A stretch of DNA of 64,000 bases from Lama guanicoe (taxonomy: Eukaryota): assembly GCA_013239625.1 (NCBI GenBank), contig MU053881.1:14748373-14812372 (forward strand), written 5' to 3'. Positions 6,730-32,983 of this stretch are shown here, piece by piece. The position numbers and the translations under genes are program-made. How positions within the stretch are numbered: position 1 is the first letter of the stretch; the number at the start of each line of letters is the position of its first letter. The notes beneath the pieces are model-generated. The model saw nothing but the letters and a program-made list of their open reading frames with translations, did not search any database and was not told the origin of the DNA.

Positions 6730-8118
6730 GTGAGGCCCGGGCCCGGGCGTCGTCGACGGGTGGGCCCCGGAGTGGGGGGCTTGGGCTTGATCCCAGGAAT
6801 CCCAGGTCCCCCCTATGGCGCAGCGGGCTCGGCCCTTGAGCTGCGCTGTGGCCGCGTCCCGCCGGGTCGGCTTGGGGGGCGGTCTTAGGCCTCCCGTGCC
6901 CGACGTCCCCTTTTCTTCGTTCTCGGAGGCCAAGAGGAGGCGGGCCGCGCCCGAAGGGGTTCATTCGTTCATTTGTTCATTCATTCATTCCACCTGAGCC
7001 TGGAGCAGCCCCTCTGGTGGGGCGATAACGGCGGCCGGGCGCTGTATCTGGCTTTTTGCCATTTTTTAAACTGGCTCCATCCCGACAGCAACCCCCACCA
7101 TTAGCTGCTCATTCCGTAGATGGGGAAGCGGAGGCACAGAAAGATTAGGTCGCTTGAATTGATCCCAGGCTACCTGGCTGGGAGACCCTGACCTTCGATA
7201 GCAGAGAACAAGGGGCGCCCCCACGAAAAGGACGGAAGGATAGGAAAAGAGGGTGATGGTTGTAAGAAATGGCTATATGGCTGGGATTGGTTTGGGTTTT
7301 GAAGCTGGGATTTCAAGATGAAAGGGATATCTTGGTGGTTAAGGACACCGCCACTGGCTTTCTCAATGTTGCTTTTCAGTCTCTTTCTTCTCAGCCCTCA
7401 GGGCTTTGTCCCCACTACCAGTGCCCTATTTGCCAGGTTACAGTCTGGGCTGGCTGACCTTGGGTGGGTCACTTAGCCTGAATTTCCCTTTTCCAGTTTT
7501 GTATCTTTTCATTCATAATAGGACCCACTTCTTTACTGGGTTGTTTCCAAGAAGTGAATGGGATCGTGGAAGTCCCTCCCCTGCAGCAAGACCTGACACA
7601 GAGTAAGCTGGTCACTGGTCAGGGATTTTTCCACCCACTCACTGAGAGGCCTCTCTCAGAGGGAAGTCAGCTCTCAGAGCCTCTTCTGTGAAACGGGAAA
7701 ATAGCAGTGGGAAAGATCACATCTTTCCTAACCAGCATTTGCAGGGGTTGTGCTCCTACTCCCCTACACTGTTGTGTTCAGTTACGTGTATTGCTTCATG
7801 CAGTCCTCCAGCAACCCCAGGAGACAGAACTGCTTTTATAGAGCTTCTTTTAAGAGATGAGGAAATAAGCTCCGAGAAGCAGAATAAATTGTCCAGGTTC
7901 AACATGCTTGCCTTGCTCCTCAGCCAACACACACCTTTGAGGTTCATGAGGGCAGAGCTCCCCTCAAATTAATCCTGCCTCCCTCTGAAGTACCGTGCCA
8001 GATTATGGATTACTGCCTTGTTACTTTGAGGATTAGGTGAAACAGAGCAGGCTCTGTGAGCTTTAGTTGTCACTCTTAGTGTCTTTTTTTCCCCCTTCTC
8101 ACTACAGGTCAGAGAAAC

Positions 8119-8239
8119 ATGGCAGCAAGGAGAATCACACAGGAGACTTTTGATGCTGTATTGCAAGAAAAGGCTAACCGATATCATATGGACCCCAGTG
8201 GTGAGGCTGTAGGTGAAGCTCTTCAGTTTAAAGCTCAAG
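8119..8239 (+). CDS. SUGP2: SUGP2 coding exon 1 (exon starts at 8108)
   Basis: Polypyrimidine tract and tacag|, then AAC ATG G. Encodes [40 protein letters not shown]. Phase-1 donor G|GTAAAT. Confidence 0.95.
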
Positions 8240-11043
8240 GTAAATTTTTTTGGGGTAGAGAGATTGAGGCATGTGTTTAGGGTCAGGGCAGGAGGATTTC
8301 AATGCTGTAAGCAAATTGCAACTCCTCTGATCCTACCTTCTTATTTGTTAAGGGGAGATAAAATTTTTTCTTGGTCCACCTGTCAAATCATTATATAGAA
8401 GGAGGTATTGTTATTATCCAGAGCTGCTTTTCCCTAGGCACCCTCCCCCACCTAACGAAGGATTCTTAAATCTCCTGGCTCACCATCACTACCCAGGTTT
8501 GAGCTCTTACCAGTTCTTACCTGAATTATTGCAGAATCTCCTCCTGAAAGGTCTTTCAGCTTCTGGCTTCATTCTCCTTGAATCTGCCCTCCCCACAGAT
8601 CTGCTTGGATTCTTGGGGCTCCCCATTTTGGGCTTAGAGCCTCAGACAAGTACAGGAGCAGCCAGGTAACTGGTGTATAAAAGACAGGAGAGCGTGGGGT
8701 GCAGAGGAGCTGTGGAGCTGCTGAGTGTAGGCTCTGCCTGAAAACATTTCCGTTGCAAAGTTTTGAAACATCATACCAGCAGAATCAAAAATGGTGCCTG
8801 CAAAGATTGCAGGACAGTGTGAAGGTCCCTCACCATGGCACACAAGGCTCCTAGCCCTCATCCCCTGCCTTGGGCCTCATGTTTCTGTGATACAGTGTGC
8901 CTAACTGTGTTTTGAATCCCTCATCCCAGCTCTGTGTGGTTAATTCCCTCAGGCACTAAGACCCAGCTCACAGGTGCCTCCCCCTAGGAGACCTTAGTAA
9001 GCCTTGGCATTGATTTACACTGTGTACTTGCTCCTCTGCCTTGGGCTGGCCTCATCCAGGCTTTGGGCCTGTGCTGCTCGCTGTTGCACCAGCATAGCTG
9101 TGGAGGAGGCTTCCGCCTTATTGGTTGAATGAGTCTAAGTGCTTTGGACCTGGAGAAACTGAAGCTCAGAGACTGTCTCCAGATTCTGAGTTTTCAAAAA
9201 TTATATAAGTGGTACACAAAAACATTCCTATTTCAAAAGACTAGAAAAATTAAGTAGTTAAGAGTAGGATATAAAAAGCCTTTTTGCTTTTACTCTTCAG
9301 AAGTAACCGTGTCAGTGGTATTTTGTGCATCCTTCAATTCTTTTAGCCCTATGTATATAATCCTAAACACTTACATGTTTTCATACATATACATCCAAAT
9401 ATCTGTGTATATGTATGTACACACATGTTTGTGTATATACATATATATTTTAAAATTTTGATTTATCTTTTCCTAGAGACTCATAAACCAATACATACCT
9501 TAGTTACTTCAAGAAAGATTGAGGGCGGCGGAGGCTACAAACCCAATAAGATGCTTGAAGATTTTGGAAACATCTCTACCTTTTAAAAACCCTAATGCCC
9601 AAGTCACGCCTCATCCTCATTAATTAAATCAGAATGCCTGGTTGAGAGGGGTGATCCCCAGGGACTTCAGTGTGCAGCAGAGTTAGGTGCTGCCTTCTTA
9701 CCACTTTGCCTCTCCTTCCTTCTGTTCCATTCTGGCCACATTTGTCCCCTCCTCTTCTTACCTCAGGGCTTTATCCTCACACTCCCTTTACCTGGAAGGC
9801 TTTCCCCATAACTGCACTTTCTAGCCTCTCACACCAGGCCTCTGCTGTTTAGATACATTGTTGTCAGAGCTGCCCACCTGACCAGCCTGTCTGAAAGTGG
9901 CTTTACTTCTTCATGTTCCCGCCTGCTTGATATTTCTTATAGGTGCTTTCTTGCACCTGAAGAATTTTTTGTTTATTGTTTGGCTTACTCAACTAACAGG
10001 TCTAGGAAGGTTGGGACTTTGTTGTCTCCTTTCCCTGCTGTAACTTCAGTGCCCATACACTGTAGGTGCTTAGTAAGTACTTGTTGGACAAAAAGACTTA
10101 GATTTATACAAAGCCCTGGCTTCCTGTGGCCTCTCGGCCCATCGCTACTTCTTAACATCTCTCTCTCGCTCGCTTTTCTTTTCATTTGACTTTGATGAGG
10201 TAGTAGATTCTGATTCAAAAGCCAGAGAATAAGAAAGGCACTCTGTGCAAAGTCTCCCTGAGACCCTCTGTTGCCATATGCCCATAGTTCACTTCTGTTC
10301 CTAGCTTTGTACAGTTTATGCATGAATGAGAAAATGCAAATATAGTTTCCTATTTTCCTCATTCCCACACAGAAGAGGACAAAAGCACACACTGTTCAGT
10401 TTCCATTATGGCCTCTGTTGTTGTGGCTTGTTTAGCTTCTGCCTTCCCTCTTATCTGCCTCAGTCTCTGTTCTTTCAGAGTGTTGGACCTTTCTGAGGGA
10501 GCCTGTCAGCCAACTTTGGGTCAGGTGCTTGGCCATGGCCTAGCCAGCTGTAGTGGGTGCAGTGTCAGATGTGGCTCTTGCCTCAGTGGCACTGTGGGCT
10601 GAGAGTTCCTCCTAGGAAGTGGGGAAGGCAGGCAGCCTCTAGAAAACCTGTCTGCTGATAGAAATAGAAATACACAAGTGGTCTGGTCACAATAAAGTCC
10701 AGGTTTTTGGGGGGACCACACGTCCTTCCCTGAGTCCAAAAGAGGGCTTGTGAAACAGAGCCAGGGCAGGAGATCTGAGTGAGTGAGGGGCACTGCTGCC
10801 CAGCCTCCATGGACTGTTGTCAGGGCAAATGCAGGCCCAGTGCTTGTAGGTCTTCTGTTTTTATAAGAAGTAAATCTAGATTTTTAAGTGAAACCACACA
10901 CATTTTAAATGTTGGCATCAAATATGCATTTCTAAAATGCACTCTGGCTGATAAAGTACTCCTGGCTGTAGGACTGTGGACCATCTGTTTGCAACTTCTG
11001 GTCTAAAGTACCTTTGTATTTCTTTTTGGATTGTTTATTTCAG

Positions 11044-12651
11044 AGCTTCTAAGGACAGTCCCAAGAGCCAGAGCAGATATGTATGATGACATTCACAGTG
11101 ACAGCAGATACACTCTGGGGGGATCTGTAGCTCATCCTCGAGACACTGGGAGAGAAGGCCTGAGAGGTGATGTATTTCCAGGACCTTCCTTCAGATCAAG
11201 CAACTCTTCAGTAAGTGATGACAGCTATTTTCGCAAAGAATGTGGCCGGGAGCTGGAATTTTCCCACCCTGATTCCCGAGACCAGGTCTTTGGCCACCGG
11301 AAATTGGGACATTTCCGTTCTCAGGACTGGAAGTTTGCACTCCGTGGCTCTTGGGAACAAGACTTTGGCCACGCAGTTTCTCAAGAATCCTCTTGGTCGC
11401 AGGAGTATAGTTTTGGTCCTTCTGCATTACTGGGGGACTTTGGTTCCTCCAGGCTGATTGAGAAAGAGTGTTTGGAGAAAGAGAGTCGGGATTATGACGT
11501 GGACCGTCCAGGGGAGGCAGACTCTGTGCTCAGGGCCGGTGGCCAAGTCCAGGGCAGAGGCCGAGGTCTAAACATTGTTGACCAGGAAGGTGCCCTCCTA
11601 GGAAAGGGGGAGACCCAAGGCCTGCTCACGCCTAAAGCGGGGGTCGGGAAACTTGTCACGCTGAGAAATGTGAGCACCAAAAAGGTACCCACTATAAGTC
11701 GTATCACTCCCAAAACTCAGGGCACTAACCAAATCCAGAAAACCACCCCAAGTCCTGATGTGACCCTGGGGACAAACCCAGCGACAGGAGATATCCAATT
11801 CCCCACTCAGAAAATCCCTTTGGGGCTTAATCTGAAGGATATTCGGCTCCCCAGAAGAAAGATGAGCTTCGACCTCATAGATAAGTCTGATGTTTTTTCG
11901 AGATTTGGGATAGAAATAATCAAATGGGCAGGATTCCACACCATAAAAGATGATGTTAAATTTTCCCAGCTTTTCCAGACTCTCTTTGAACTTGAAACCG
12001 AAACCTGTGCTAAAATGCTTGCCTCATTCAAATGTTCTTTAAAACCAGAGCACAGAGATTTTTGCTTTTTTACTATCAAATTTTTAAAGCACTCTGCTTT
12101 GAAAACTCCCAGAGTTGATAACGAGTTTTTAAACATGCTTTTAGACAAAGGTGCTGTGAAGACCAAAAATTGCTTTTTTGAAATCATAAAGCCCTTTGAT
12201 AAATACATAATGAGGCTTCAAGACCGGCTTCTGAAGAGTGTCACACCACTGCTCATGGCCTGCAATGCCTACGAGCTGAGTGTCAAGATGAAGACCCTCA
12301 GTAACCCTCTGGACTTGGCTGTTGCCCTGGAGACCACCAATTCTCTCTGCCGGAAGTCTTTAGCCCTTTTGGGACAGACGTTCTCCTTGGCCTCTTCTTT
12401 CCGGCAAGAGAAAATCTTAGAAGCTGTCGGCCTCCAAGATATAGCTCCCTCTCCTGCCTCATTTCCAAACTTCGAGGACTCTACTCTGTTTGGAAGAGAG
12501 TACATTGATCACCTGAAGGCCTGGCTGGTCAGCAGTGGGTGTCCACTCCAGGTTAAGAAAGCCGAAACCGAGCCAACTCGAGATGAGGAGAAAACGGTTC
12601 CTCCTGCCAAACCCGAAATTCAGGCCAAGGCTCTGGGTGGTCTGAGTGATG
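11044..12651 (+). CDS. SUGP2: SUGP2 coding exon 2 (1608 nt, phase 1-1)
   Basis: Lies within the 557-aa ORF (ELLRTVPRAR...ALGGLSD). Acceptor tttcag| and donor G|GTAAGG. Confidence 0.96.
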
Positions 12652-14764
12652 GTAAGGAAAGTAACAAGTTTCTATTTGTTGTGATTGTTTTTCATGTTTT
12701 ATAATGTCTCTCATTCGCTTTGAGATTTGTACATTGAAGTTCTTTACCCAGCTGAAACAAATCAGAATTTTAGTAGAAAACTCACAGTGACCAGTATACC
12801 CATCTGCCATTCATTCTATAAGCATGTATTAGGAATCTTCTGTCTGCCACAGAAGTCCATAGGCTTTCCAGGTCACAGACTGTGACTGGGAATCTGATGA
12901 AAAGCTATGGTCCTTGCCAGAGAAGATGCACATGTGTTTGTGCACAGTTTTACTTGCACTTTCTGGGGTGTTTGTACCATCGTGTAGCCAAGGTTAAGAA
13001 GGTTATTCTAATAGCACCCTTTTCCCTCCCTTCCCCCACCCCCACCAAGGTTTTACTGGAAGGGAGAGTAAATGCTGGACACTGTCTCTAATGATTCCCT
13101 AGGCTTGTGAGGGAAGGAAATCACAAAACCCAGTCCAGCCTGGCCTGGGGAGTCAAGGAGGCCATGTTTGAGCTGTTTTGAGGGACAGGCAGAAATCAGC
13201 TAGATTGATCCAGGTTGTGGAGGCACATTTTCATTCACTCACTTTTCTAGACTGGCTGGAGACTGAGAGATACTTAGGTATACCTGGTAACCTGCAGTTA
13301 ACCAGTTGGCTTATTGGGAAGGGGAAAGGCCAAGAAGAAGGTAATAGAAATAGAAACGACTGGCTGTTTGGTGTCCCTTTTCTCTCCCTCTTAGATCCCT
13401 GGATGTTCTCACAGCCCAGACATCCTAGAGGTTAAGAGTATACATAGTGGCCATGTGGCCTGTGAGGAAGTGCCTTTTCCCCCGATAGAGTTTTCAGCTT
13501 CCACTGCCCCAGCCAAGTGGGGGAGTCTCATTTTTCCTTGAATCTCTTCAATCCTCTGCACCCTAGTGGAGCCCTGACTGTAGCAGGCAGAGTAGGTCCT
13601 GCCATGGATAGGCAGCAACACCTACTCCCAGAAAGGGAGCTTTCCAGGAGGGGGCTCAGGGCTGAAGCAGGACCGTCTTCCCCACACCCCCAAAGTAGTG
13701 TGGTGGAAAGTCAGTATAACAATGATACTGAAGAACTTTGTAAGAAGGACAGAAAAGTCCCCCATAACCTGAAGTTGCCCACCACCATCCCCTGGTTGTG
13801 TTGCTATGCAGGCCTGCCTGTAGCTGCAGTCTTGTCATACTTTTCTGTATTTCTACAGCATTTGCTGCGTCATGATTTGATTTAATGTAAATTTACCTCA
13901 CCTCTCCCTTGATGTTGGCTTCATGCTGCTTTTTACTAGAGGCTTCTGAGGCTGAGCAGAGCTGGGTTCTCATGTAATTGGCATCTGCAAGCCTTGACTC
14001 TTTGTCTGGTCAGCAGGTAGATGGCACCAGTGTCCATCTTTTATGGGCACTGCCCTACCACTACTTACATTTCTGTTAGAGATGCTGAGATGACATCTTT
14101 GGTTGAATTTATTATTACTATTATTTTCACTAAAATTAAAAAAAAATCCTCTTTTAAAGGAGGTGTTCTCAGAATAATTGTTGCGTCAAAGCTAGGACCT
14201 ACTTTATGACTGTGGTCATCTCTAGAGATGGTTGCAGTGATCCACAAAATTTCATTGTCTTTGAAAGCTTCTGACTTTGAACCTCTTATTCTTTTTAGAA
14301 TCATGTAAAAATAGCAGTTCTATAAAATGAGATCCAGTAACAAAAAAAGGAAAGCAGTTTCAGAGGGGAGATAACATTATAGTTGAAGGATTGACTTATC
14401 CTGTGTTAAAAACTCATACTGATGTTTAAAATACCATTCCACAGAACAAACTGGGAAACCTCTCCAGTTCAAGGGTGATTTTTATTGAATGAATGAATAA
14501 ATAGACCATCTGTGCTAGTAAAACTAGCAAATATCAGAAAACCTAAACAATCTTAGTATTAGAGAATATAATGCACTTCTATGTTGGCTGGTGACATTGT
14601 AAATTACAAGTCATATTGGAGGAAATACACACTTTAAAAAATGTTTTCATACATTCAGCAGGTATTTTCTGTCAACGCTTACCTTGGGACCATTGACTTT
14701 TTTAATTGGGAAGGGTTTTTTTTTTGTAAATTTATGTGTATTTTCTGATTACAAAACACATGTG

Positions 14765-14900
14765 TGGGGGGGTAGAGGGTGGGAAGGGATAGAATGGGAT
14801 TTCAAAATTGTAGAATAGATAAACAAGATTACACTGTATAGCACAGGGAAATACACACAAAATGTTATGATAAATCACAGAGAAAAAAATGTGAAAAAAA
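14765..14900 (+). mobile_element. Short L1 3' fragment
   Basis: gggaagggata, ataaacaag and ctgtatagcacagggaa motifs with an A-rich end. Confidence 0.6.
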
Positions 14901-15109
14901 ATGTGTGTTTATTTTTTATAGATAAAGCACACAAAAAAAATGAAATCCCTGATAAATCTACCACCCATAGATAATCTCTGTTAACTTTCTGGTATATTTC
15001 CTTCTAATCTTTTTGCTATGTGTCTATATTTATGTATCTTTTCTTTCTTCTTTCGTATTGGAAATCACAACCTAGTATACTTTTTACATATTTTATACCT
15101 AGATACCTT

Positions 15110-15285
15110 TTTTTAATTAAAGTATAGTTGACTTAAAATGCTGTGTTAGTTTCTGGAACACAGCACAGTGATTCAGCTACATATATGTACATTCTCCTTC
15201 ATATTCTTTTTCACTAGAGGTCACCACAGGTATTGAATATAGTTCCCTGTGCTACATAGTAGGACCTTGCTATTTATCTATTTTA
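15110..15285 (-). mobile_element. Truncated L1 3' end with target-site duplication
   Basis: aagtatagttgact..gaatatagttccctgtgcta, flanked by acctagatac on both sides. Confidence 0.7.
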
Positions 15286-15670
15286 CCTAGATACATTTTA
15301 TCTTTCTATTTTCCCCTTAATATTGTGAACATTCAAGTTGAACTATATGCAAAAGGTGGTACGGAGTTGCTACACACCATTTCCTTCTATAGACTAGACT
15401 GTGTATATATTGCTCTGCTCAGTCACTGTAACTTTGTGACTGTTTCTCTCCTAGTGATTATGCTGTTACAGCTTTTGAGAGGATAGTTTGCATATTGGTT
15501 TCTAGAATAACAGGCCCTTTTCCTCCTTTGAATGCTTGTCTCTTGGGAATGAGGATTTCAGCTGCTGGTGCCTGCTTAGGTTCTATCCTAAGCCCCTGAT
15601 GCTGTCCTGGGTTTCCCAGGCCCTGTGTGGTCAAGTGTGTTTCTCAGAAAAGCCTTTCTATATGTTCCAG

Positions 15671-15791
15671 TGGTCCCCCAGCGAGCAGATCACAAGGTGG
15701 TGGACACCATTGACCAGCTGGTCACACGAGTCGTTGGAGGCAGCCTGTCTCCCAAAGAGAGAGCTCTTCTTAAGGAGGACCCTGCTTACTG
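15671..15791 (+). CDS. SUGP2: SUGP2 coding exon 3 (start of SURP motif 1)
   Basis: ttccag| VPQRADHKVVDTIDQLV...KEDPAY TG|GTATTT. Phases fit both neighbours. Confidence 0.93.
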
Positions 15792-17267
15792 GTATTTATT
15801 TATTTGTTTGTTTGTTTATTATTTTTTTGAGAATAAATTTGTACGTTTATGTAGGTTGTATAAACAGTAACATCCCCAAGTGTATCGATTTCTTCTGATG
15901 TGTAACTTAGACTCCTGGTTTGGTACAGCCCTTCAGACATCCATTGAAAAGACAGTTTTTCCTTGTACGTTAAATACTGGGTCTCTCCATATCGTTTTAT
16001 ACCTCCATTCCTCACTGATTGATACAGTTTTTCAGTTGACACTGTTCCTTTTTCCCAAGGGATTCCTGAGCACTTCTGATAGTTGATGTTGCTCTTCTCA
16101 ATCCCTCCCATAAAGTGCACAGCAATGTTTTGTGTTGCTGTGATGATGTCTAGAGCTGAGGGTGAGAATGCTTATTTTGAGTGGTGGTGTCAGTCAGTGG
16201 GGAGTGCATAAGGATGGGTCAGATTCACATGGGTTCAACCTCCAGCCCTGCTGCTGACTTGCCCTGTGGCTTCTTGTGCGGGTGTGGAGCTCCTTGTCCC
16301 TGCTGTGCTGGTTTGAGGATGACATGAGAGGTGCATGCAAAGAGCAAGTGTAAGATGAGGAATATGTCACAGCGGTTGTGATTTCTTGCTACTATTGGCT
16401 AAACTGTCTTTTCCTTTTGCCTTATTGTCTCTTCACCTGAACAGAACAACTTTTTAAAATTAAAGTTTTCACCATAAATATAGTACTTGCTTATTAGAGA
16501 AAGTAAAGAAGAACAGAAAGTTGGGGGAAGCCACCCATGTGCCTAGTAATGTCCGTTGACATTTTGGGGTGTTTGTTTCTAGTCATTCTGCTCATTAGGG
16601 ACTGCTTGGTTTTTAACATAGTTGTGTTACATGTGTAACATAGCTGTGATACAATATACCCTGCTTCTTTTAGATAATAGGAAAATGCTCATATTCTCTA
16701 TTCTTTGTAAACATTTCAGGTGGCTGCATTTACTGATCCATAGAATAGGTGATCAGTTTATTTAGCCATTCCTCTCTTGTTGGTCTTTGGGAATGTTTTT
16801 GATTGTACACTATTTAAAATATTTTTTCTTAGAATAGCTTAATGTGTCACACTTTCATGTGTGTTTAGGATTATCTCTAGATTAGATTGATGGAAGTGGA
16901 AAAGTTTTATGCTTTGTTAACTTAAAAAAAAAGATCAAAGGGGCATATGCCATTTGTAAAAATAGAGAATAGTAAAAAGGCAAAGATGGAGTTACTCAGA
17001 ACTCTCCCATTTTTTTCCCTACAGTGTGTGCTCAGTTGTTGTGTCCTATTTTAAACTTAATATAATTGTCCTTATTATCGCCGAGTGTGTACTATTCCTT
17101 CATACACGGTACCCTACACTTAACCACTGCTGATTGGTGGATTTTTACATTCTAATAACATGATGAACAAAGTTTTGCTTTTATTTCTGTCAGTTTATTA
17201 CAGTAATATCTGGGAATGAAATTGTTGGTTTAAAAGCAAAGCTCGCTTTAGAGGCATTTGATCTGTC

Positions 17268-17460
17268 TGTTTCTCAGCTGCAGCTTTATTGACATTTGAG
17301 GCTGGATAATTCTCTGTGGTGGGAACTGTCGTGGGCATCCTTGGCTTCCACCCACTGGATGCCAGTAGAACCCTCCATCCCAGCTGTGACAGTCAAAAAT
17401 ACCTTCAGACATTGCCCAGTGTCCCCTGGGGGACTGAGTTGCTCCTGGTGGAGACCACTG
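17268..17460. mobile_element. MER20-like hAT DNA transposon fossil
   Basis: ttgacatttgaggctggataattct, cccactggatgccagtag and cagacattgcc..tgtcccctgggg motifs. Confidence 0.8.
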
Positions 17461-18869
17461 GTCTTTATCATCAGGTTCCTTTCCATGCGTTATTTGTCCC
17501 AGTTGACACTCTCACTGCCGCTCCATACATGTTCCGTGCCCTCACAGGAGTGTTTTGACTTAAAAATAGTTTCATAGTGTGATGTTTTACCTTATGTTCT
17601 TTTGTTAATTAAAGAGACTATGTGTTTACTCATAGAACTTGTAGTTGTAGTTCCTCTTTTTGAGTGGTCTGTTCAGGTCTGATGTAGTCAACATTGTACC
17701 CATACCAAATAGTCTTGCTGTTGTAATTACTAAAGGTGCTTGAAAGGTATAAATTTCTGTGTAATGGTACCAGGGCTTTGGTCCTAACCAGCATGATTTA
17801 CCAGGAGAAGAGTTGGAACTTGTTATGGTTTTATTTTTGCAGAATTCTGGAATTCATCTAGATTATGTTCATGTATTGAATAAGATAAGCATGTAACTTA
17901 GAAATTTAAAAAAAAAAACAAACACCAATAACCTAATTGCTCCAGTATCATTTACTGAATACTTTTTTTGTCTTTGTATATGTATTTTTTTATTGAAGTA
18001 TAGGCAGTTTACAATGTTGTGTCAGTTTCTGGTGTACAGCATAATGCTTCAGTCATACATGAACATATGTGTATTCATTTTTATTGAATACTTTTATTTA
18101 GCAAATACTTTTGTTTTCTGTGCCTGTAGTACCATTTTAAGCAGTTTACTGATTGAAGCTGTCTGAACCCTCATAAACAACCTTTTGGGGTAGATATGTT
18201 GTCATCCTTATTTTACAGACAAAACTTGCTCAAAAGAGGTCTCTTGCCTCAAGGATACACAGCTAATAAAGGACAGAGCTGAGATTCACATTCAGGCTCT
18301 GTGGGCTTAACCAGTGCTCATGCTGAAGAAAGGAAGCTAGATAGCCTCAGATTGACAGATGAAAGCAGAAACCAAATCCTCTGGGTATGATGTCATCTAG
18401 ACTTGGAAGACCCAGGGGCAATTTCCAGGTGATTGCTGAGATGATTGGGCTAAAGGGGAAGCAGATCCTGAGAGGACTGGGGGCATGTGCCTCTGCCCCA
18501 TGACCACTGCACACTAGCCAGCAGGCTTATGATCACTGACAGCCAGGGGTGGCAAACAGAACCATAGCCAGAGTCAGGTGTGTGTGTGTGGTGGTGGTGG
18601 TGGTGGTGGGAGGGGTGTACAAATCAGAATAAGCATTGAGCTAAAAACCAAGTATTTGAGGAAAATCAGCATTATGAAGGAGGATCATCAAACTCAATAG
18701 AGCTGACACCTAAGAAGACAGAGTTACTATAAGAAAAAGAAGATTGTCTAAAAATGCATATATGTAACTAATAGTTTTAAATGGAAAATAATATATTGTA
18801 TCCATGAAACAGGAACTGCTTGTTATGGAAAAGAACCAATTAAGGATCTTGAAATGAAAAATCTCATTT

Positions 18870-19046
18870 TTAAAAAATTTTATTTGTTAATATTTTATTT
18901 ATTTATTGTTTTATTTAATTATTTTATTTTGGTGGGGGGTGGTAATTAAGCTTATTTATTTTTTTTCGAGGAGGTACTGGGGATTGAACCCAGGACCTCA
19001 TGTATGCTAAGCATGCACTATACCACTTGAGTTATACCCTCCCTGC
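18870..19046 (-). mobile_element. Vic-1-like SINE with target-site duplication
   Basis: tRNA-like head plus a ggtaatta tail segment, flanked by aaaaatctcatt. Confidence 0.85.
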
Positions 19047-19479
19047 CAAAAAAAAAATCTCATTGTTGAATTAAAAATCTCAGTTGTTAGCTAGTAGAAT
19101 AGACCTGGTTGAAGAATAAATTAGGGGGCTAAACTTTGAGCATTGATCACTTGTGAACTCCTTCAGGAGATATTACCCCGAGACCATAAGGAGAAAGAAT
19201 GTGATCCAAAAAAAAACCAATGTTAAGAAACTAGTAAACTTAGGTTTTTGGTGTGTATGTTTGAACTCTTAAGTCAAAGTAGTACTTGTTTGTGATTCCC
19301 CCCCGCCAAATCAGTTAAACTAATCACAAAGGCAAATAATTATACCATAATCCATTCCCATACCAATTCCACTCCTTGGAGGCAGTCACTGTTAATTCCT
19401 TAAGCTGCTTTTAATAGTTACCTCTGTATCTCTAGAAATGATAAGCCTGTTACCTTTTCTTGATCTATCAGGTTTTTTT

Positions 19480-20000
19480 TTAAATGTATAGTCTGAGTTT
19501 TTTTTTGTTGATTGAAGTATAGTTGATTTACAGTGTTGTGTTAATTTCTCATGTAGTGATTCAGTTATACAAATATATACATGTGTATATTCTTTTTCAT
19601 TATGGGTTATTTTAAGATACTGAATTTAGTTCTCTGTTATACATTAAGACCTTGTTGTTTATCTGTTTTATATATAGTAGTTTGTATCTGCCAGTCCCAG
19701 ACTCCTAGTTTATACCTACCCCTCCTCCTTGGTAACCTTATGTTTATTTTCTATGTCTGTGAGTTTCTTTCTGTTTCATAAATAAGTTCATTTGCATAAT
19801 TTTTTAAGATTCCACATGTAAATGATAACATGATATTTGTCTTTCTCTGACTTACTTCACTTAGTATGATAATCTCTAGGTCCATCCATGTTGCTCCAGA
19901 TGGCAGTTTCATTCTTTTTTATGGCTGATTAATATTCCATTACACTTGTGTGCACATGTGTGTGTAAACACACAGTCATCTGTCAGTAGACGTTTAGGTT
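19480..20000 (-). mobile_element. L1 3' end
   Basis: attgaagtatagttgatttac...aggtccatccatgttgc, with flanks tgatcta(t/c)cag. Confidence 0.8.
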
Positions 20001-21114
20001 GCTGATCTACCAGTTTTATGCATTAGTGTTGACACCCTATGAAGATAGATGGGGATTTAGCTTACTTTCCTCCCCAGTGTTTGAGGAATTCTGTCATCGA
20101 TCAGGAGATTCCCAACTCGAAAATAGGGTTTTGTTTTGTTTTTTAATAATAGTTTCTTTTTATTAGTTAGGACAGACCTCAGGAAGCAGATGTAAGAAGG
20201 GTTTCTATTATTTCCACCCTCCAAGGTCCAGCAGGAATTTGTGACTCCCTCTCCCCACGAGGAGGGGCGAACTTAGGTTTGTTCACAGCCTCACAGCCAA
20301 GCCTTGCGAGCAGAACTGACTGCTGCCTCTTGCCGAAGAGGCCTGCCTCTCTGGTGCACTAGCATGTCCATAGTACAGACAGATACCACACAAACTTTGT
20401 TTCCTCATCTGGAGCACCAAGAAGTAGACATCCTCCGCTTTCTATGAGAGACATTGTGGAGCAACAAGCCTCTAGGATGGTCCCAACAATGCAAGAGTAG
20501 AGCTGAAGGAACATGTTATGCTTCGTTTTCTCGCATCTTCTAGATTGTCCCTGGGATTGGAATGACCCTTACCTTTCCTGGACTATGCACTCCAGAGACA
20601 GCCCACTAGGTCCACGTGTTTATAGACTCAGAAAGAAATAGGTGGCCAAGAATCTTGTTTAGCCTCAGCAAGGTTGTCCAAGGGCCCCAAAGGGAACACA
20701 AAAATCTAAATAATTGATGCTTGGGGGAAAAAACCCTAAAATCCCACATTATCTAAATATTAAATATGCAAGGGGAAGAAGGGAAGTGGATGCTAGGGCT
20801 CTTGGCTTGTTTAGAATAAGGATACAGCTGGTGAGTAACTCTGGACAGTAACAGAAAATAAGAGCTTAAATGTTTATTCCCATTAAAGGCATAGAAATGG
20901 GATTTAGAACTTCCCTACTAGTATAAAAGGGTGAGGAAAGCAAAAGGTACTCAGTCTAATGAAAAGCCAAAAAAGAAAAAAAAAAAAAGAAGAGAAAAGA
21001 GAAGCAGATAGGAAACAAGAGTTTAAATTTATTCAGCCTTACTAGGATTACACAAGTTTCTGCCGGTTGATGCTGCCTTTATTAGCCAGAGACTCAAGTT
21101 TGAAAGCAGCAGCT

Positions 21115-21847
21115 GTTGGAGAGGGTGTGGGGAAAGGGAACCCTCTTACACTGTTGGTGGGAATGTAGTTTGGTGGAGCCACTATGGAAAACAGTATGGG
21201 CATTCCTTAAAAAATTGAAAATAGATGTACCCTATGATCCAGCAGTACCATTCCTGGGCATATATCCAGAGGAAACTCTAATTCAAAAAGATACGTGCAC
21301 CCCACTGTTCATAGCATCACCATGTACAAAAGCCAAAACATGGAAACAACTTAAAAGTCTATTGACAGATAAAGAAGTTATGATATGTTTATACAATGGA
21401 CTCCTACTCAGCCCTTAAAAAGAATAAAATAATGCCATTTACAACAACATGAATAGACCTAGAGATTATTACACTAAGTGAAGTAAGCCAGAAAGAGAAA
21501 CAAAAATACCATGTGGTATCACTTATATGTGGACTCTAAAAAAAGGACATAAATGAACTTATTTACAAAACAGAGACAGACTCACAGTCATAGAAAACAA
21601 ACTTATGGTTACTGGGGGAAAAGGGGATGGGGGGATAAATTGAGAGTTTGGGATTTGCAGATACTAACTACTATATACAAAACAGATAACAAGACTCTAC
21701 TATACAGCATAGGGAACTATATTCAATGCCTTGTAATAGCTATAATGAAAAAAATACGAAAAGGAATATATATATATGTATCTGTAACTGAATCACTATA
21801 CAGTACACCAGAAATAAACACAACATTGTAGATCAATCAATCAATAA
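21115..21847 (+). mobile_element. 5'-truncated L1 (end of ORF2 and 3' UTR)
   Basis: [21 protein letters not shown], the ORF2 C-terminal motif. (TCAA)n tail and flanking agcagcagct duplication. Confidence 0.9.
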
Positions 21848-24094
21848 GAGCAGCAGCTCTTAGTTCCTCATCAGAGTCACTTAAAACACAGGGAGTGAAA
21901 CATAAAGATGGAAGACAATATACCAAGCAAATGCTACTGAAGAGAAAGGAGATATGGAAATGTTACTTCAGACAAAACAGAAAAACATTCAAAGGGGCAA
22001 AAAGAGGTTACTGACAAGGGAAAGTCATCATGAGCTACAATGGTTGGGAATCTCACTGCTGGAACCACACGTGGCTATGAGCTATGTAAACATTTGGAAG
22101 TATAAGAGGAACTGGAAATCTTTACTGTGGTAGGAGACTTGAATGTACTTTCCCTGAAATGGGTAGATGTCATCCAAATAAAAGTGTGGAAAATTTAGAA
22201 TACAGAGAATGATCATAAATGAATAGAGATGATGTACTAATCATTGTTGAACAGGCAGTATTCAAAGCATTTTCCTTAAAATGAAAAGTATATAACTCAA
22301 GCCTCACAAGTAGGTTATTATTATTATCTGTCCCTTACAGGTGAAGAAACTGAGGCATAGAAAAATTCATAAATCTCACAGCTAGTAAGTGGCTACACTG
22401 GGATTTGAACCTGGCAGACTAGCTTGGGAGTATTCTGTGCTCTTGATGTGCTCCATTAGAACTGGGGGAGATGGATTTGTGACTCATGTTCTCAGACTGC
22501 ACTTGGCATCAGAACCATCCAGGGGAAAGGGACTTACATTGTGGGATCCAGGTCACCTGGGCACTGACTGTGCTTTCTGCCCTGGATGAGGAGTGGCCTT
22601 GCTGCGGCTGCGTTTGACTTGAGAACCATGTGTTGATCAGCTTTCCCTTATGTGGGAACCCTTGCTTGTTAGGGTTCAATCTTGCAGGATGCTGCTGTTG
22701 GCCAACAGAGTGTCCAGGGCAGTGGAGGAGCCAGCACACAGCCTGTTTCCTCACATCCAGCCAGACCTTAATTGTGCAGAGAGCATCAACAGGAGCTTCA
22801 TATGGAGCTGCTCACCAGGGACATGCTGCATCACATGGTGCTGCCAGCATCCTGCTGTGCACTGCCACCTCGCTTCCAATCAGCTTCTGTTATTGGTAAT
22901 TGGGAACCTCATCTAATGTGATCTCAACATCACAAAAAGCCACATGAAGTATTGCTGTATTCACCAAACAATACTCATTCTTTAACACAGACTGAAAATG
23001 AACATTCACAAAAAACTTGTTATGAATGAGGACATGAAGAGAGTTACATACAGCACATCCCAGGAAAGGAATTACGTGGGCCACTTTATGCAATGCATAA
23101 AAGTTGCAACCAGCAACAGCCAAAATAAAACAGGCTTGTAAATAACTTTTGACTGAAAGAGAATTAGAATTGAAATTAAAAGCTCTTCAGAAGGAAGTAG
23201 CAGGGAGAGCACTGCATATGGAATGTAGCCGCAACAACAGCTGGGGGAAAAGTGCAACCTTGGGTGTGTTTATCAGAAATAGACCGAAGATAAGCATTCA
23301 ACAACTCATGAAGCTAGAAAGAAATGGTGAAAAAAGGCCAGAGACTAGAAGGGAAGAGTTAATAGAGATGAAAGAAGGTGCTAATGAAATGGTCAGCAAA
23401 GTAAATAAAGTGAAAGTCCCTCTCCATGCTCCTTTCTAACCCATTCCTCAGAGCTAATTCTTAAGTTTGCTTTGTATTCTTTCAGCCTATGTGAAAAAGG
23501 CAAATATATGTGTATGTACACAGTGCAGCTTCACATGGTCTGTATCGATGTTGATACTCTTCTATAGCTTGCTCTCCATGCTGTGGATCTCTTTCTATGT
23601 CAGTACTTGTAACTCAAACTCCTTTTTTCTATACTGTTCTCATTGTGACTCTGACATGTGATTTCACAGCAGTGCCACACTGGCCTCAATTCAGTTAAAA
23701 GATCACTGAGTGTCCACCATCTGAAGGGCATCACCTCCCAGAAACAGTGTCCAAGAACAATGCTTGCCACTCCCTAGTAGGACAGTGCTTCCATGGTTCC
23801 AGGTGACTGGTTCGTGAGGCCACCAGGAGCTGCAAGCTCCTTCATGGCTGCTGATGACAGGAATTGAGGAGGAATCGACCAGTGCTCCATCATATCTCCT
23901 GGTTCCCCTGTAGTCACTCTGAGCAGGATGGATGGCCAGGGCCCAGCTCTGGGTACATGTTGGAGCCAGGCAGGGACTCTCCAAAAGCAGGGAGGTCGCC
24001 AAGTACAAAAGGTTTACGGAAATGTATTTACAGCAACAATTTGGTCATGCTGGTGTATTCACAAATGTCCTGCTGTGCGTGTTTTGTTATATAG

Positions 24095-24582
24095 GTTTTT
24101 GTCTGATGATAATAGTCTGGAGTATAAATATTACAAGCTGAAGCTGGCAGAAATGCAGCGGATGAGCCAGACTTTGCCAGGATCGGATCAGAAGCCGATG
24201 GCGGCCGAGTGTGCAGTCCGGGCCATGCTGTATGCCCGGGCAGTTCGGAGCCTCAAGAAGAGGCTCCTCCCGGGTCGGCGGCGGGGGCTGCTTCGAGCTC
24301 AAGGACTCCGGGGCTGGAAGGTGAGGAGAGCAACCACCGGGACCCAGACCCTCCTCTCCTCAGGCACCAGGTTGAAACACCATGGCCGGCAGGCTCCAGG
24401 CTTCTTGCAGGGAAAGCTGCCTCAGCCAGATGGAAATGATGCTGCCAAGGATTGTCCACCAGATCCTGCCAGACCCTCTCCTCGGGACCCCAGCCCAGAA
24501 GCCTCAGATCCATCCCTGAAGCCAGTAGGCGTGGATGTCTCTGAAGCCCCTCAGACTTCCTCTCCCTGCCCGTCTACTGACA
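24095..24582 (+). CDS. SUGP2: SUGP2 coding exon 4
   Basis: atag| FLSDDNSLEYKYYKLKL...SSPCPSTD A|GTGAGT. Confidence 0.95.
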
Positions 24583-25139
24583 GTGAGTTCTCACTCCTTT
24601 CCCCTCCTCTGAGCCCCAGCCCCAACACTGATCAATCTCCAGGGGTCTCTGCTGAGGTGGATGGCTTCAGTGGGCTGGGCTGCACTGGGCTGGGCAGCAG
24701 GCAGTAGTGAAAGGAACCTGGCCAGGGTGGTGCTCACGGAGGCACTCTCCTTGCTTTCTTGAGGGACCAGCCCTAGAATCCCACTGCATGTTTCCTCCTG
24801 CCCTGAGTGTGGAGCTGACATGAGGTGCTGCCCAGTGATTCTGTTCAAGGTCATCCTGTTGGCCAGCAGGGTGTGCCATCTGCCCATGCTTGGGCCTTTG
24901 AGCTCCTTGATCCATTTCTCTATTCTTGCCCATGTATGTTCTGTAAGGCTGCCCTTGTTCTCATTCTGCTTCTTCCCTGCCACGGTCCCTCTGTTTCCCT
25001 TCTCAGGGTTATCTGACCCACATTTTCTTCTGTTTCTCCCAGCCGTTAACTTCTCCTTCCACAACAGGCCTACCCCCTGTCCTGTGCTTTCCATTCAGCA
25101 CTAAGTGGGAATGTAGAGGGAAAGAATCTACCCAACAGC

Positions 25140-25567
25140 TTCATTCTCTAGCGGTTGCTATGTAACGAGCCACTCCAAACTGTGGCTTCAAAGAGGAGGC
25201 ATCCAGTGTTGCTCCGAGTCAGCTGGGCTGGGCCTGCAAATGCATTTGCAGGCAGAGAGTAGTTGCCTGGGACTGCCAGCTGAGGTGATGGGGATGACTG
25301 AGCTACATGCCTGTCACCCTCTAGCAGCCAGATTGTGTTTGTTCACCTGACAGTCAGGATTCAGCATCCTGGAGAGGCAGTGGGGTGCTTGAGGCCTCTG
25401 AAGCCCAGTCTCCACATTTCTGTCCCATTCTCAGCCAGCAAGAGTCCCCGGGCCAGCCCCAGTTCAAGGAGAGAAAAAAGAGTTCACCTCTCCTGGACAG
25501 AGCTGCACAGTCACGTGGCAAAGGGCAAGGCTGCAATGAGGGGCCATCTTTGTAGTCAGTCTCCACA
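25140..25567. mobile_element. MLT1-type (ERVL-MaLR) LTR fossil
   Basis: ttgctatgtaac..ccactccaaact..gtggctt start and gccatcttt....ctccaca end. Confidence 0.55.
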
Positions 25568-25634
25568 GCCCCATAATGTTCACATGGGAATTGACAGCTC
25601 AGAACTGATCCATGACAATTGCTTTGTTTTGTAG

Positions 25635-25746
25635 TTGATGTGAAAACAATGGAGACTGCAGAGAAACTTGCTAAATTTGTTGCTCAGGTGGGACCAGAGA
25701 TTGAACAATTCAGCATAGAAAACAGCACCGATAACCCTGACCTGTG
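25635..25746 (+). CDS. SUGP2: SUGP2 coding exon 5 (SURP motif 2)
   Basis: ttgtag| (I)DVKTMETAEKLAKFVAQVGPEIEQFSIENSTDNPDL TG|GTACGT. Confidence 0.95.
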
Positions 25747-27654
25747 GTACGTACCCATCATGCCCCTTTGACTTGAGTGTTCACCCCATGAGTGTCCTGA
25801 GAGCCCACAGGACAGCCTGGCAGATGCACTCCTGCCCCACAGATCAGCCCAGGATAAATCATGACTTCACTTCCACTGAGCTCAGGGCTGTTAGGGAGAA
25901 GCATCTGTTTGGGTTATTGGGAGATCGGCCCTCATCTGGGGCATCAGGGAAGCCTCCCTGGAGGGGAGCTGGAGCTAGATCCAAAGACTCAATGGATGTT
26001 TGCCAGGGCAAGGGGGAGAGAACACCTCAGCAGAGGGACTAGTATGTTCCCTAGAACCTGTGTGGAGGCAAAGAGGAGGGTGTGTCCTTGCCTGTGAGTC
26101 TGAGGAGGAGGGTGGACACTGTCCCTGGTCTTGCTGGCAGCTCTGGGTAGGATGAGAATGTGCTGCTCATGTACTATAATGGATGGGTCCTGGTCTGGGT
26201 GTGAGCAACAAGCATCTCCACGCATGGGGGCCTGGCACCCTTGTGCCAAGAGGGGGCACCATTGTCCTTTCCATTCCTCAGATAGGGTGGCTGTTCAATG
26301 CTACGCAGCCCAAAGGTGACAGAACCAGGGCTGGAGCCCACTCTGCCTGTGGGGTGCAGGTTCTCCTTCAGGGGAAGGCCCCCTAGGGCCATGTGTTTCT
26401 GGTACTGAGCCATAACCCTGCTGGGCTCCCCGTGAAGTGAGTGGGGTTCCCGTGCTCTGTGGATTGTATCCTATAGCTGGCTAGGGAATCTGGACCCTTG
26501 CCCTGCTCCAACATGCTAGACACTTGTGCCTTAGTTTAATTAAGAATACAGATAAAAATTTTACATTTCCTGGAGCATTTCTGGGGCCCAGCGGTAACTA
26601 AGCGTGCGGTTCTAGCTTGTTTGGGACCTTGAGTGAGTCATACACTGGGGTTGCCTCCTTCCTGTGGGACTCAGACCAGCTACATGGAGCACTGATGGCC
26701 TTGCTGGACTTCAGCCTGCTTCTGCCTTTTACAGACCTGGGGGCTGCTGGGCCTTATAGACCTCAAAGTTGGGCTGCCCACGTATGAGGGACCTTACACT
26801 GGCAGGACCAGGCGAAGGGGACAGCTCAGTGAAGGGCAACCAGGAGCATTTTATCAGTTCTCTTTTTTTCCCCAGTGAAAACTACAGTTTGAAAGAGAAC
26901 TCTGCATTATCCTGGGCACTTGACACTGCCAGGGATTGGGGTTATTCCTTTCCCTCTGACAGCCTTTTCTGAGCAGTGTTCCTCAGATAGCACTTTCTCC
27001 TCCTTTCCCACATGGAGACCCCAGGAAACTACAGTAGCATCAGATGAGGTGATTTACTCTGTCCCCCAGTGCTCGTAGAATAGTTTGAAGAAGACTTCAC
27101 CAAACAGCACACCTGTTTAGTAAAGGCCAAATGACTTTGTGTTTTCTTTTCCTTTAGAAAATTTTTATCTCTAAGGTGCTCCTTAGCTGCTTGAGTTAAT
27201 TCATTTTGTGTTTGTGGTTGTCATCAATTTGATACACACTCAGGTTCCTTTGTTTCTGCTGAAATCAGTTTGGGTGCTTTTTTTTCACATCCTTTTAAAC
27301 AAGTAAATAAGTACAGCATTTGTGTGGCTCTAAAGTAAAAATTAGAAGAGGTAAGTTCAGAGAAGTCTCATGCCCTCTACCTATCAATGGGATACCATTT
27401 TCATTCATTTCTCTGTGTGTGTGTGTGTGTGTGTATGTATGTTCCCTCATAGCTCTTACACCAATAAGTAGTCGTCTATATGTAATAGACTCTTTTGCAT
27501 CTTGCTTTTTTCCCTTTACAGCATATCTAGAAGTTCCCCTCTGCCTGTCCCACCTATACCCTCATCTCTGTTCCATTGTGTCATCCTCCACATGCAGCCA
27601 CACCTGTTCCCAGTGTGCTAGAGAGGCATGCCTTAGTTTAAGATAGATTTTTTT

Positions 27655-27863
27655 TTAAAGTTTTTTCTGTATAGCACAGGGAACTATGTTCAATTTCTTG
27701 TAATAACCTTTAATGAAAAAGAATACGAAAACAAATTTATGTGTGTATCTGTATGACTGGGACATTGTGCTGTATACCAGAAATTGACACATTGTAACTG
27801 ACTGTACTTCAATTAAAAATAAATAAATAAATTTAAACCTCCATCCCAAGGGAAAAAAAAAAA
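27655..27863 (+). mobile_element. L1 3' terminal fragment with A-rich tail
   Basis: ctgtatagcacagggaactat...acattgtaactgactgtacttcaattaaaaa. Confidence 0.8.
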
Positions 27864-28289
27864 AGAATACCGTTTGAAACTTGACATTTCCTGGAGCGTT
27901 TCTGGGACCCAGTAGTGACTCAGCACACTCTTGTAGCTTGTTTAGCCTAGTGCACAGTTGCTTTGTGTTTGTGGCCATTGGGTATCTTCCAGAAGGGGGA
28001 TTAATGCAAACTAAGTTTTGATAGGTAGTGCAGGTTTTCCTCCCTGGGTCCACTCTCCCAGCAGTATCATGAGTGCCTGTCCCCACTCCTCCCACCTTTT
28101 GATGTGCCTTTGAACCAGTGGGATTATGAGACATTTCTCATTTTCTCAATGAAGTTTTAGTTTGCATTTTTCTTAAGTAAAATTTTGAAGCCCTTTTCAT
28201 AAACTTATGTGTCATTTTTATATCTTTATGTAAACTGTTCATATCATTTGCTCTTTGTTTTTTTAAAAGAAGTTTCATCCTCTTAGAAA

Positions 28290-29990: not shown

Positions 29991-30183
29991 TGGCCCAAGT
30001 ATATTTTGTGTGTTTTCAGTTTCTCACACCAGCCGCAGCTCCAGTGGCTCAGGCCGTTGGACTCTGCAGTGCAAAGAGGCCATATTACCATGACATTCAC
30101 TCACCTTTGCTGCAGGACATGAGGCAGAAGGTGCTGCAAGTGGCAGACCTTTTTCCATCTCATAGCTGGAGTGTGGGAGGAAC
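29868..30183 (+). repeat. About 315-bp dispersed duplicate, copy 1
   Basis: Aligns end to end with 61852-62167. Confidence 0.95.
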
Positions 30184-30564
30184 AGTGAGCAAACGCAGGC
30201 CCAGAGTGGCCGGTGATGTAATTAGAAAGATGAAGTAAGGCCCAAGTCGGATCTTCTGGCTGTAGTGTTAGAGCTCGTACTAGCATGTTCCCTGGTCGTC
30301 CCTGCATACCTTGTTCCTCCACCTCCCTCCCCCGAAAAGCAGTTAGGCCTCTTACGTTCTGGCTCCTTTGTTAAATTACTAATACTCCTTAAACTATCTC
30401 ATTGCACAGCTGACCATCAACCGTAGCTGGCAGAAAGAGGTCATGTTATTTGCTTCTTTGTCCCACTTCCAGCTTTGTTGAGTCCATTTGGAAGTTTCAG
30501 CGAATGGGAGTGTTCAGAGAGCCGTCTGATTAACCATAACCAGTGTATTTCATCTTTATCCCAG

Positions 30565-31082
30565 GTTTCTACATGACCAAAATAGTTCAGCTTTCAAATT
30601 CTATCGAAAGAAAGTATTTGAACTGTGCCCATCGATTTGCTTTTCATCATCTCCGCTGACCCTCCAAGCCAACGAGAGCGCTGATTCTCAGGAGAGCCCC
30701 CTAGAACCCATGGAAGGGGAAGGAGAGTTTGAGGACGAACCCCCTCAGCATGAGGCCGAGCTGGAGAGCCCAGTGATGCCTGAGGAGGACGAGGACGAGG
30801 AGGACGAAGAGGAGGAGGATGAGGAGGGGGGTGAGGAGGTCCCCACTCCTGGAGAGGCCTCCAGGCCGATGGGCGGGTCTACCAAGTCCGAGTGCTCTGA
30901 GGGCAGCCCCCCTGCTGATGGCCTCCTGAGTGAAGTGGCCGAGGATGGCCCTGCTGGTGCGCCCGCCCTGTCACAGGCTTCCTCAGGGGCCTGCTTTCCC
31001 CGGAAGAGGGTCAGCAGCAAGTCATTGAAGGTCGGCATGATTCCAGCTCCCAAGAGACTATGTCTCATCCAGGAGCCGAAAG
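30565..31082 (+). CDS. SUGP2: SUGP2 coding exon 6 (end of SURP2, acidic tract)
   Basis: cccag| FLHDQNSSAFKFYRKKVFELCP...LIQEPK G|GTGAGT. Confidence 0.95.
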
Positions 31083-32921: not shown

Positions 32922-32983
32922 TTCACGAACCAGTTCGAATTGCCTATGACAGGCCTCGGGGTCGTCCCGTGTCCAAGAAGAAG
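32922..32983 (+). CDS. SUGP2: SUGP2 coding exon 7
   Basis: ttctag| (V)HEPVRIAYDRPRGRPVSKKK |GTGAGC. Confidence 0.93.

Follow-up and report, generated by a model that had tools for sequence, protein, structure and literature searches.

The stretch of Lama guanicoe DNA considered here, 64,000 nucleotides of contig MU053881.1 and hereafter the window, contains on its forward strand the coding span of SUGP2, within which a single large internal exon is the subject of this analysis. The exon has canonical AG/GT ends (...TTTCAG upstream, GTAAGG downstream), lies within an open frame of 565 codons (11007-12704) with phase 1 at both ends, and has a translation that matches a camelid SUGP2 record (P0003) at residues 55-590 with 100% identity, such that the single 1608-nt, phase 1-1 exon proposed in an earlier sequence-only reading of this DNA is confirmed. 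The features of the locus are as follows.

about 8107..36771, + strand: SUGP2 coding span, with an upstream exon near 8107-8238 and downstream exons encoding two SURP modules and a G-patch
11044..12651, + strand: large internal coding exon of SUGP2, 1608 nt, phase 1-1, residues 55-590 of P0003
11044..11879, + strand: fast-evolving, low-complexity N-terminal half of the exon, as judged from ortholog identities
11880..12548, + strand: folded helical domain, residues 18-240 of P0001 (model mean pLDDT 88, pTM 0.81)
12021..12530, + strand: core aligning with the anuran DIRS-type ORF1, residues 65-234 of P0001 (157 columns, 26% identity, probability 98.7)
12195..12425, + strand: two long helices, residues 123-154 and 160-199 of P0001, the predicted four-helix dimer interface
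12219-12221, + strand: codon of the invariant Q131, whose partners in the other chain of the dimer model are residues 185, 188 and 189
12465..12494, + strand: PNxxxxxLFG motif, common to SUGP2 and the frog ORF1s in the alignment

Annotated spliced SUGP2 proteins include the exon, in a search able to find only those isoforms that hold it, and RNA-like sequencing runs contain its sequence, with no splice junctions seen among them. The exon is of phase 1-1 and has a length divisible by three, and could therefore be skipped in frame to give a SUGP2 that is devoid of the domain. In terms of known families, a Pfam scan of the exon returns none at E values up to 10, the whole protein returns SURP and G-patch and nothing else, and eight further long open frames in the 64-kb window return none. 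PF27652 is found on many SUGP2 records and is absent from exon-only records, and thus probably marks another region of the protein.

An AlphaFold model based on 39 SUGP2 sequences and covering residues 317-563 of the protein (P0001) is all-helical and confident, and describes a domain of ~220 amino acids. The helical motifs from which the sequence-only reading began are all present at 12030-12530, and this range nearly equals the part that aligns with ORF1; the ordered domain, however, starts some 150 nt earlier, since the helices of the model begin at residue 22 (window position 11892) and the domain as a whole occupies about 11880-12548. Its identity is 82-99% across the eight amniote orthologues compared and 32-66% in six non-amniotes, whereas the N-terminal half of the exon is only 32-87% identical in the same eight amniotes (32-48% in birds, turtle, platypus and opossum). 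Comparison of identities at the protein level thus indicates that the domain is under strong constraint. The N-terminal half may descend from the unstructured N-terminus of an ORF1.

The domain is encoded by one intron-free exon and appears to be single copy. No second copy was found in the window's genome, where six candidates were scored, from which it follows that the paralogue SUGP1 appears to be without the domain. The weak matches elsewhere in the same genome (L002-L005 and L009-L011) have E values of 0.02 or worse, with internal stops in three of the first group and two of the second. No remnant of a reverse transcriptase (RT) or recombinase is present in the 64-kb window around the exon; in other words, the rest of any element is gone from the window. 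The exon-only open frames of one mammal and two bird-like records likewise stop after the domain. Sequence searches of the PDB with the domain and with profile A5 gave nothing significant, DIS3 being rejected as a weak candidate relative (E 0.13), and no match at E 0.001 was obtained in a viral structure library.

Relatives beyond SUGP2 are nevertheless evident at the level of sequence. A phmmer search of the domain against 1.84 billion protein representatives gave 54 matches, made up of 43 SUGP2-like proteins, seven other host proteins, three anuran element proteins and one repeat artefact (P0170, 3694 aa, E 5.5e-6; 17 stretches, none above 4.5 bits), which was rejected. The anuran matches are P0171 (record name 'Tyrosine recombinase', E 5.7e-6, 31% identity), P0172 (E 1.7e-5) and P0174 (E 7.8e-5). 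A profile built from SUGP2 sequences only detects complete frog ORF1 domains at ~70 bits, as against at most 4.3 bits for shuffled sequences (300 shuffles for each of six targets). Conversely, a profile built from ten frog sequences only detects the SUGP2 domain of the window at 43 bits and matches 21 of 21 host carriers tested, while matching neither LAP2alpha exon nor any reversed control. Alignment of SUGP2 and frog ORF1 profiles with hhalign gives a probability of 98.7 (E 2.7e-16, 157 columns, 26% identity). Within the window's genome, the frog ORF1 P0174 has the SUGP2 exon as its sole match (E 7.3e-7) and the shark-type exon P0162 has it as its only significant place (E 1e-18); the Xenopus protein P0238 matches window positions 12195-12521 (E 5e-10).

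The anuran ORF1s, which are the closest non-host relatives of the domain, resemble it in helix order, are 26-32% identical to it over 105-157 residues, and have in common with it invariant Q, P, GQ, PN and LFG positions. Five alignment columns are invariant over 20 host and element sequences, and Q131, itself invariant in SUGP2, is also invariant across hosts and elements, where it corresponds to Q160 of P0174. From these comparisons, the SUGP2 domain is almost certainly homologous to the anuran ORF1. The proposal that this segment of the exon resembles a DIRS ORF1 is thus supported by two-way profile matches, and the non-SUGP2 relatives for which profile searches had been suggested do exist, including anuran proteins in which the domain lies upstream of an RT (P0241) or a tyrosine recombinase (P0171 and others).

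The nature of the anuran proteins is therefore an important factor. With P0174 as the query, 16 long proteins were retrieved, 15 of them from Pelobates cultripes; these 15 models lie on seven contigs and 13 of them are at least 98% identical over the 225 aa of ORF1, near-identity across seven contigs being indicative of a young dispersed repeat. In P0241, which is a gene model and not DNA, ORF1 occupies residues 1-160 (83% identical to P0171) and is followed by an RT at 246-408 (PF00078, E 5.3e-21). A tyrosine recombinase (PF00589) follows ORF1 in P0171 and in six of nine other toad models at E 0.001-0.005, these matches scoring 17-19 bits, below the Pfam cut-off of 27.1, with the other three models giving no match. 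Thirteen of the 15 toad models carry the source name 'Tyrosine recombinase', and an integrase family is listed in none. P0241 and P0208 have a post-RT linker in common; P0208 runs from this linker into an SDAS motif, which we take to be the start of RNase H (there is no RNase H Pfam match), and ends in the recombinase. HSIR and FY motifs are visible in the recombinase, presumably those of a tyrosine recombinase catalytic site, and its C-terminal motif looks, in our judgement, DIRS-like rather than Ngaro-like. The proteins appear therefore to be those of a retrotransposon of DIRS order, as known here from automated, frame-stitching gene models alone, the DIRS gene order being ORF1, RT, RNase H and recombinase (PMC9210276, in the part available). 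The same part of that source reports a LAP2alpha-type domain in the ORF1 of all Xenopus DIRS-like families. Unlike the SUGP2 domain, the anuran element is multi-copy, has an ORF1 followed by RT, a putative RNase H and recombinase, and carries a basic tail at the C-terminus of its ORF1.

The element copies found are anuran only (P0171, P0208 and P0241 from Pelobates cultripes, P0174 from Dendropsophus and P0238 from Xenopus laevis), with no invertebrate element confirmed and no relatives found in viral contigs or metagenome scans. In Pelodytes ibericus, a gene model of the NLR type (PYD-NACHT-LRR) has a piece of this element's ORF1 attached to it (P0214), which is likely to be a recent insertion or an annotation join. 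The nearest Atlas clusters of SUGP2 and of the frog ORF1 coincide, and are unnamed and mostly arthropod (scores of 0.93-0.95, one with PF30815). These clusters are probably invertebrate DIRS ORF1s, and their being common to both sets of sequences points to an older element family.

Turning to the fold, a Foldseek search of the SUGP2 model, as the sequence-only reading had suggested, ranked the LAP2alpha structure 2V0X first (probability 1.00, E 0.027, TM 0.40-0.46), with the next entry at a probability of 0.20. VIA-align likewise placed 2V0X first (Z 8.8, rmsd 4.4, 166 of 205 residues), ahead of an entry with Z 6.9 over 81 residues, and its rows other than 2V0X cover at most 107 residues. These searches spanned 48,161 chains for Foldseek and 350,542 for VIA-align. 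The hit had been predicted beforehand, but its scores are modest for a helical fold, the Z of 8.8 lying below the VIA-align caution line of ~13 for helical bundles, and the structural alignments carry 11-16% identity. In the Atlas, PF11560, the LAP2alpha family, is a lead for the SUGP2 domain at a score of 0.90 (14% of members), and a frog ORF1 model aligns with a cluster that is 77% PF11560 at a TM of 0.71. The frog ORF1 model built here is poor (mean pLDDT 54) and 2V0X is absent from the listed rows of both of its fold searches; such a model neither closes the triangle between SUGP2, ORF1 and LAP2alpha nor speaks for another fold.

At the level of sequence the link to LAP2alpha is not significant, the SUGP2 domain scoring 3.2-6.6 bits against the camelid TMPO and ZNF451 exons with hhalign probabilities of 0.8-2%. 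Only the PNxxxxxLFG stretch lines up with the LAP2alpha exon of ZNF451, again weakly and without significance. In the window's genome PF11560 matches at two sites, a TMPO-like and a ZNF451-like exon, which on the family match are taken to be those exons themselves; the SUGP2 exon is not among them. The domain does not reach the PF11560 cut-off. Taken with the model, the domain is best described as a distant relative of LAP2alpha with a predicted LAP2alpha-type fold that lies outside PF11560, and its lack of PF11560 membership and of significant similarity places SUGP2 in another DIRS lineage from TMPO and ZNF451.

The comparison with these two genes is instructive. The LAP2alpha domain of TMPO (PF11560, 2V0X) is DIRS-derived and, as far as the available part of PMC4495291 describes, the DIRS-derived exons code for 506 aa in TMPO and 497 aa in ZNF451, sizes similar to that of the SUGP2 exon. 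Like SUGP2, TMPO has one large exon of ~500 codons with an unstructured N-terminal half and a folded C-terminal half, a fold and dimer to which those predicted for SUGP2 correspond, and a nuclear, chromatin-associated product. The exon of ZNF451-L2a is likewise a large, DIRS ORF1-derived exon (PMC4495291, same part), with a C-terminal R..xL...P....LFG stretch weakly in common with SUGP2. The differences lie in position and age: the TMPO exon is alternative, terminal and confined to mammals, and that of ZNF451 is alternative, terminal and Eutherian-only (PMC4495291, same part), the latter also passing the PF11560 cut-off at 37.8 bits, whereas the SUGP2 exon is internal, in frame with the downstream SURP and G-patch regions, and found from sharks to mammals. 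The likeness to the TMPO and ZNF451 exons that had been drawn earlier therefore holds for the large single exon and the predicted LAP2alpha-type fold, but not for age, SUGP2 being far older, nor for an alternative terminal position.

The age of the SUGP2 exon follows from its carriers. Of 18 SUGP2-like matches that were looked up, 16 could be named, and include elephant shark, catshark, coelacanth, lungfish, caecilians, salamanders, frogs and a lizard. No ray-finned fish is among the 16, which could mean that SUGP2 or its exon has been lost from that group. In salamanders and caecilians the domain is retained in several divergent SUGP2-like paralogues, not all of which have the G-patch (P0134, P0139, P0146, P0155, P0157, P0161, P0135 and P0141); several of these lie on one contig, which suggests tandem expansion and fast evolution. 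In trees of 46 and 23 rows, without an outside root and with TMPO and ZNF451 left out as unalignable, the SUGP2 domains of sharks through mammals group as a single clade (100/99), which places the gain before the split of sharks from bony fish. This split took place about 440-460 million years ago. The gain in SUGP2 thus long predates the events in TMPO (mammals) and ZNF451 (eutherians), as dated by PMC4495291 in the part available.

The seven non-SUGP2 host proteins comprise two shark and ray groups with RRMs of the MATR3/ZNF638/RBM20 type, in which the domain is C-terminal, and a coelacanth protein. In a stingray ZNF638-like isoform X9 (P0163), the domain lies at residues 1078-1426, C-terminal after the RRMs, and the exon-only record P0162 matches the domain of P0163 from residue 9, as expected for a single terminal exon; the arrangement looks like the TMPO/ZNF451 pattern in a cartilaginous fish. 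A second shark and ray gene of the RBM20/MATR3 family, with a zinc finger and RRMs (P0167, P0168, P0169, P0173 and P0231-P0233), has the domain directly after its last RRM, and its carriers form their own clade (100/99). Latimeria LOC102359790 (P0165, P0184 and P0185) has the domain and no other Pfam domain, and is either a domesticated gene in its own right or an old copy of an element. In addition, a chordate Atlas cluster automatically named 'DBIRD complex subunit ZNF326 isoform X1' contains PF11560 in 77% of its 56 members, and is a possible further co-option of a LAP2alpha domain that is absent from the literature found.

As to what the domain does, two copies of P0001 residues 18-240 were modelled as an intertwined homodimer with a score of 0.80, the best control scoring 0.00, with at least 73% contact agreement between runs, pLDDT of at least 73 and the surest contacts centred on Q131. 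The mark used for a dimer was attained by 21 of the 30 solved microbial pairs and none of 23 single chains, and in the eukaryotic set by 17 of 29 pairs and none of 30 single chains; only one of seven eukaryotic pairs without a solved relative attained it, and the pass for SUGP2 may accordingly reflect likeness to the solved LAP2alpha dimer, 2V0X. On this modelling, the domain would probably form a homodimer in cells. In the available part of PMC11417337, the chromatin association of LAP2alpha requires dimerisation through its domain, for which an artificial dimeriser substitutes. SUGP2 is found on chromatin and binds deep within long introns that are rich in U and contain LINEs; hnRNPs and MATR3 purify with it, and its repression of splicing is largely independent of DHX15 (10.64898/2026.06.30.735655 and PMC6108849, each in part). 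Its paralogue SUGP1 (SF4) likewise has two SURP modules and a G-patch (10.64898/2026.06.30.735655 and PMC8558236, each in part) but acts with DHX15, which SUGP2 mostly does not (the former, in part). By analogy with LAP2alpha on chromatin, the domain is likely to be a dimerisation module that would give SUGP2 avidity on long nascent introns: a bivalent SUGP2 could be held on such introns, on chromatin and within hnRNP/MATR3 meshes, and this would explain splicing repression without DHX15. Mice lacking Sugp2 are fertile and only mildly affected (PMC8558236, in the part available).

Several other accounts have to be weighed against descent from a DIRS element. That the likeness is one of chance or convergence between helical hairpins has next to no probability; long helix pairs do match many unrelated PDB chains at Z 6-7, and matches of this kind were all that the low-confidence frog ORF1 model yielded, such that chance is conceivable for the LAP2alpha link, but between SUGP2 and the frog ORF1 it is refuted at the level of sequence by matches with shuffled and reversed controls, by reciprocal single matches and by the five invariant columns in 20 sequences. 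It is also very improbable that an old cellular dimerisation domain was captured by an anuran DIRS family in place of its own ORF1. Such a capture would accord with the element copies found being all anuran while the host copies occur in all jawed-vertebrate groups named, and a tree without an outside root gives no direction of transfer. The direction from element to host is instead inferred because the domain occupies the ORF1 position, as do LAP2alpha-type domains in Xenopus DIRS-like families in general; because the host exon is intron-free; because the fold matches that of LAP2alpha, itself a precedent of DIRS derivation; and because the 54 phmmer matches include no recognised SUGP-like carrier from a jawless vertebrate or an invertebrate (16 of the 43 SUGP2-like ones being named). 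The mostly arthropod Atlas clusters nearest to both SUGP2 and the frog ORF1 also speak against capture. A DIRS origin of the SUGP2 domain is, then, highly probable.

Whether this origin was direct is a finer question. It is possible, if the less likely course, that the domain was domesticated once, early in the jawed vertebrates and perhaps in a gene of the MATR3/ZNF638/RBM20 family, and that the exon was then shuffled or duplicated into SUGP2 and other genes. Two features absent from the frog ORF1s are found in all the host copies, namely a W-A-G-like motif in an N-terminal helix and an insertion of ~9 residues ahead of the first long helix, and the SUGP2 profile scores the other host carriers at 97-119 bits and the frog ORF1s at about 70 or less. 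Several insertions from one ancient family, extinct or unsampled, would however give the same pattern, the role of the exon differs between carriers (internal in SUGP2, C-terminal in the shark proteins), and the trees leave the four host groups without a resolved order, AU tests rejecting neither a union of the two shark groups (p 0.21) nor one of frog and SUGP2 (p 0.25). The independent co-option proposed in the sequence-only reading thus stands relative to TMPO and ZNF451, from a separate lineage, while entry straight from an element and exon shuffling from another host gene both fit. With regard to function, it is conceivable, though rather doubtful, that a domain of the same origin is not simply a homodimeriser but a Gag-derived RNA-packaging or hetero-oligomerising module, for instance one that recognises retroelement RNA or partners. 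SUGP2 ranks near the top of the proteins that bind LINE introns by eCLIP (PMC6108849, in the part available), the LAP2alpha domain also binds lamin A/C and chromatin weakly (PMC11417337, likewise), and all nameable carriers are nuclear RNA- or chromatin-binding proteins. Against this, the SUGP2 domain is near charge-neutral (K+R 0.13, D+E 0.11), and the basic tail with which the frog ORF1 ends (K+R 0.25) is missing from SUGP2.

The reading we prefer, to which we would give a probability of about 0.8, is that the exon represents the core of a DIRS ORF1 which was exonised before the split of cartilaginous and bony fish and has been kept since. In this account a Gag-like ORF1 core from an element of DIRS order would have entered SUGP2 as one in-frame internal exon, the remainder of the element would have been lost and the domain retained under strong constraint, with a fold like that of the LAP2alpha C-terminal domain and a putative intertwined homodimer formed through its two long helices.

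No published link of SUGP2 (SFRS14) to DIRS, to retrotransposons or to LAP2alpha was found in the literature covered, which excluded subscription papers and newer Pfam/InterPro text. The 2015 discovery paper of Abascal et al. gives homology only in TMPO and ZNF451 in placental mammals in its available part, and SUGP2 is absent from three of its four supplementary files (PMC4495291); a 2018 Repbase review, as far as available, gives TMPO and ZNF451 as the only human traces of DIRS (PMC5753468). One preprint places SUGP2 among HMM-predicted ERV-ORF genes, with no domain or DIRS named in the part available (10.1101/628875), a prediction that we suspect is due to the G-patch. Exons derived from L1 ORF1 are similar to the SUGP2 exon in that a transposon protein domain is fused to a host gene by exonisation, but come from another element class, and neither SUGP2 nor DIRS is mentioned in the text and ten supplements of the paper that describes them (PMC12129022). 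SETMAR and L1TD1 are also transposon-host fusions, again from other element classes. What is supported as new here is an internal exon of great age that derives from the ORF1 of a separate DIRS lineage, together with further carriers in cartilaginous fish and coelacanth.

If this is true, SUGP2 is the third DIRS-derived mammalian gene, from another lineage and, on vertebrate divergence dates, at least twice as old as the other two. That sharks, rays and coelacanth have additional carriers suggests repeated recruitment into one class of nuclear RNA-binding proteins. More speculatively, the DIRS Gag-like domain may be a recurrently domesticated assembly module (TMPO, ZNF451, SUGP2, the two shark and ray MATR3/ZNF638/RBM20-family genes, the coelacanth gene and possibly the ZNF326 isoform), and the preference of SUGP2 for LINE-rich deep introns could be a leftover of Gag-like RNP assembly, turned to the surveillance of retroelement RNA from its origin in jawed vertebrates, a proposal to which we would not attach much weight. 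The well-folded SUGP2 domain would, in addition, be a practical structural stand-in for DIRS ORF1. For SUGP2 itself, an origin and a fold can be named for one of its most conserved parts, with dimerisation as an activity open to testing, and the domain offers a reason for SUGP2 behaving unlike other G-patch proteins.
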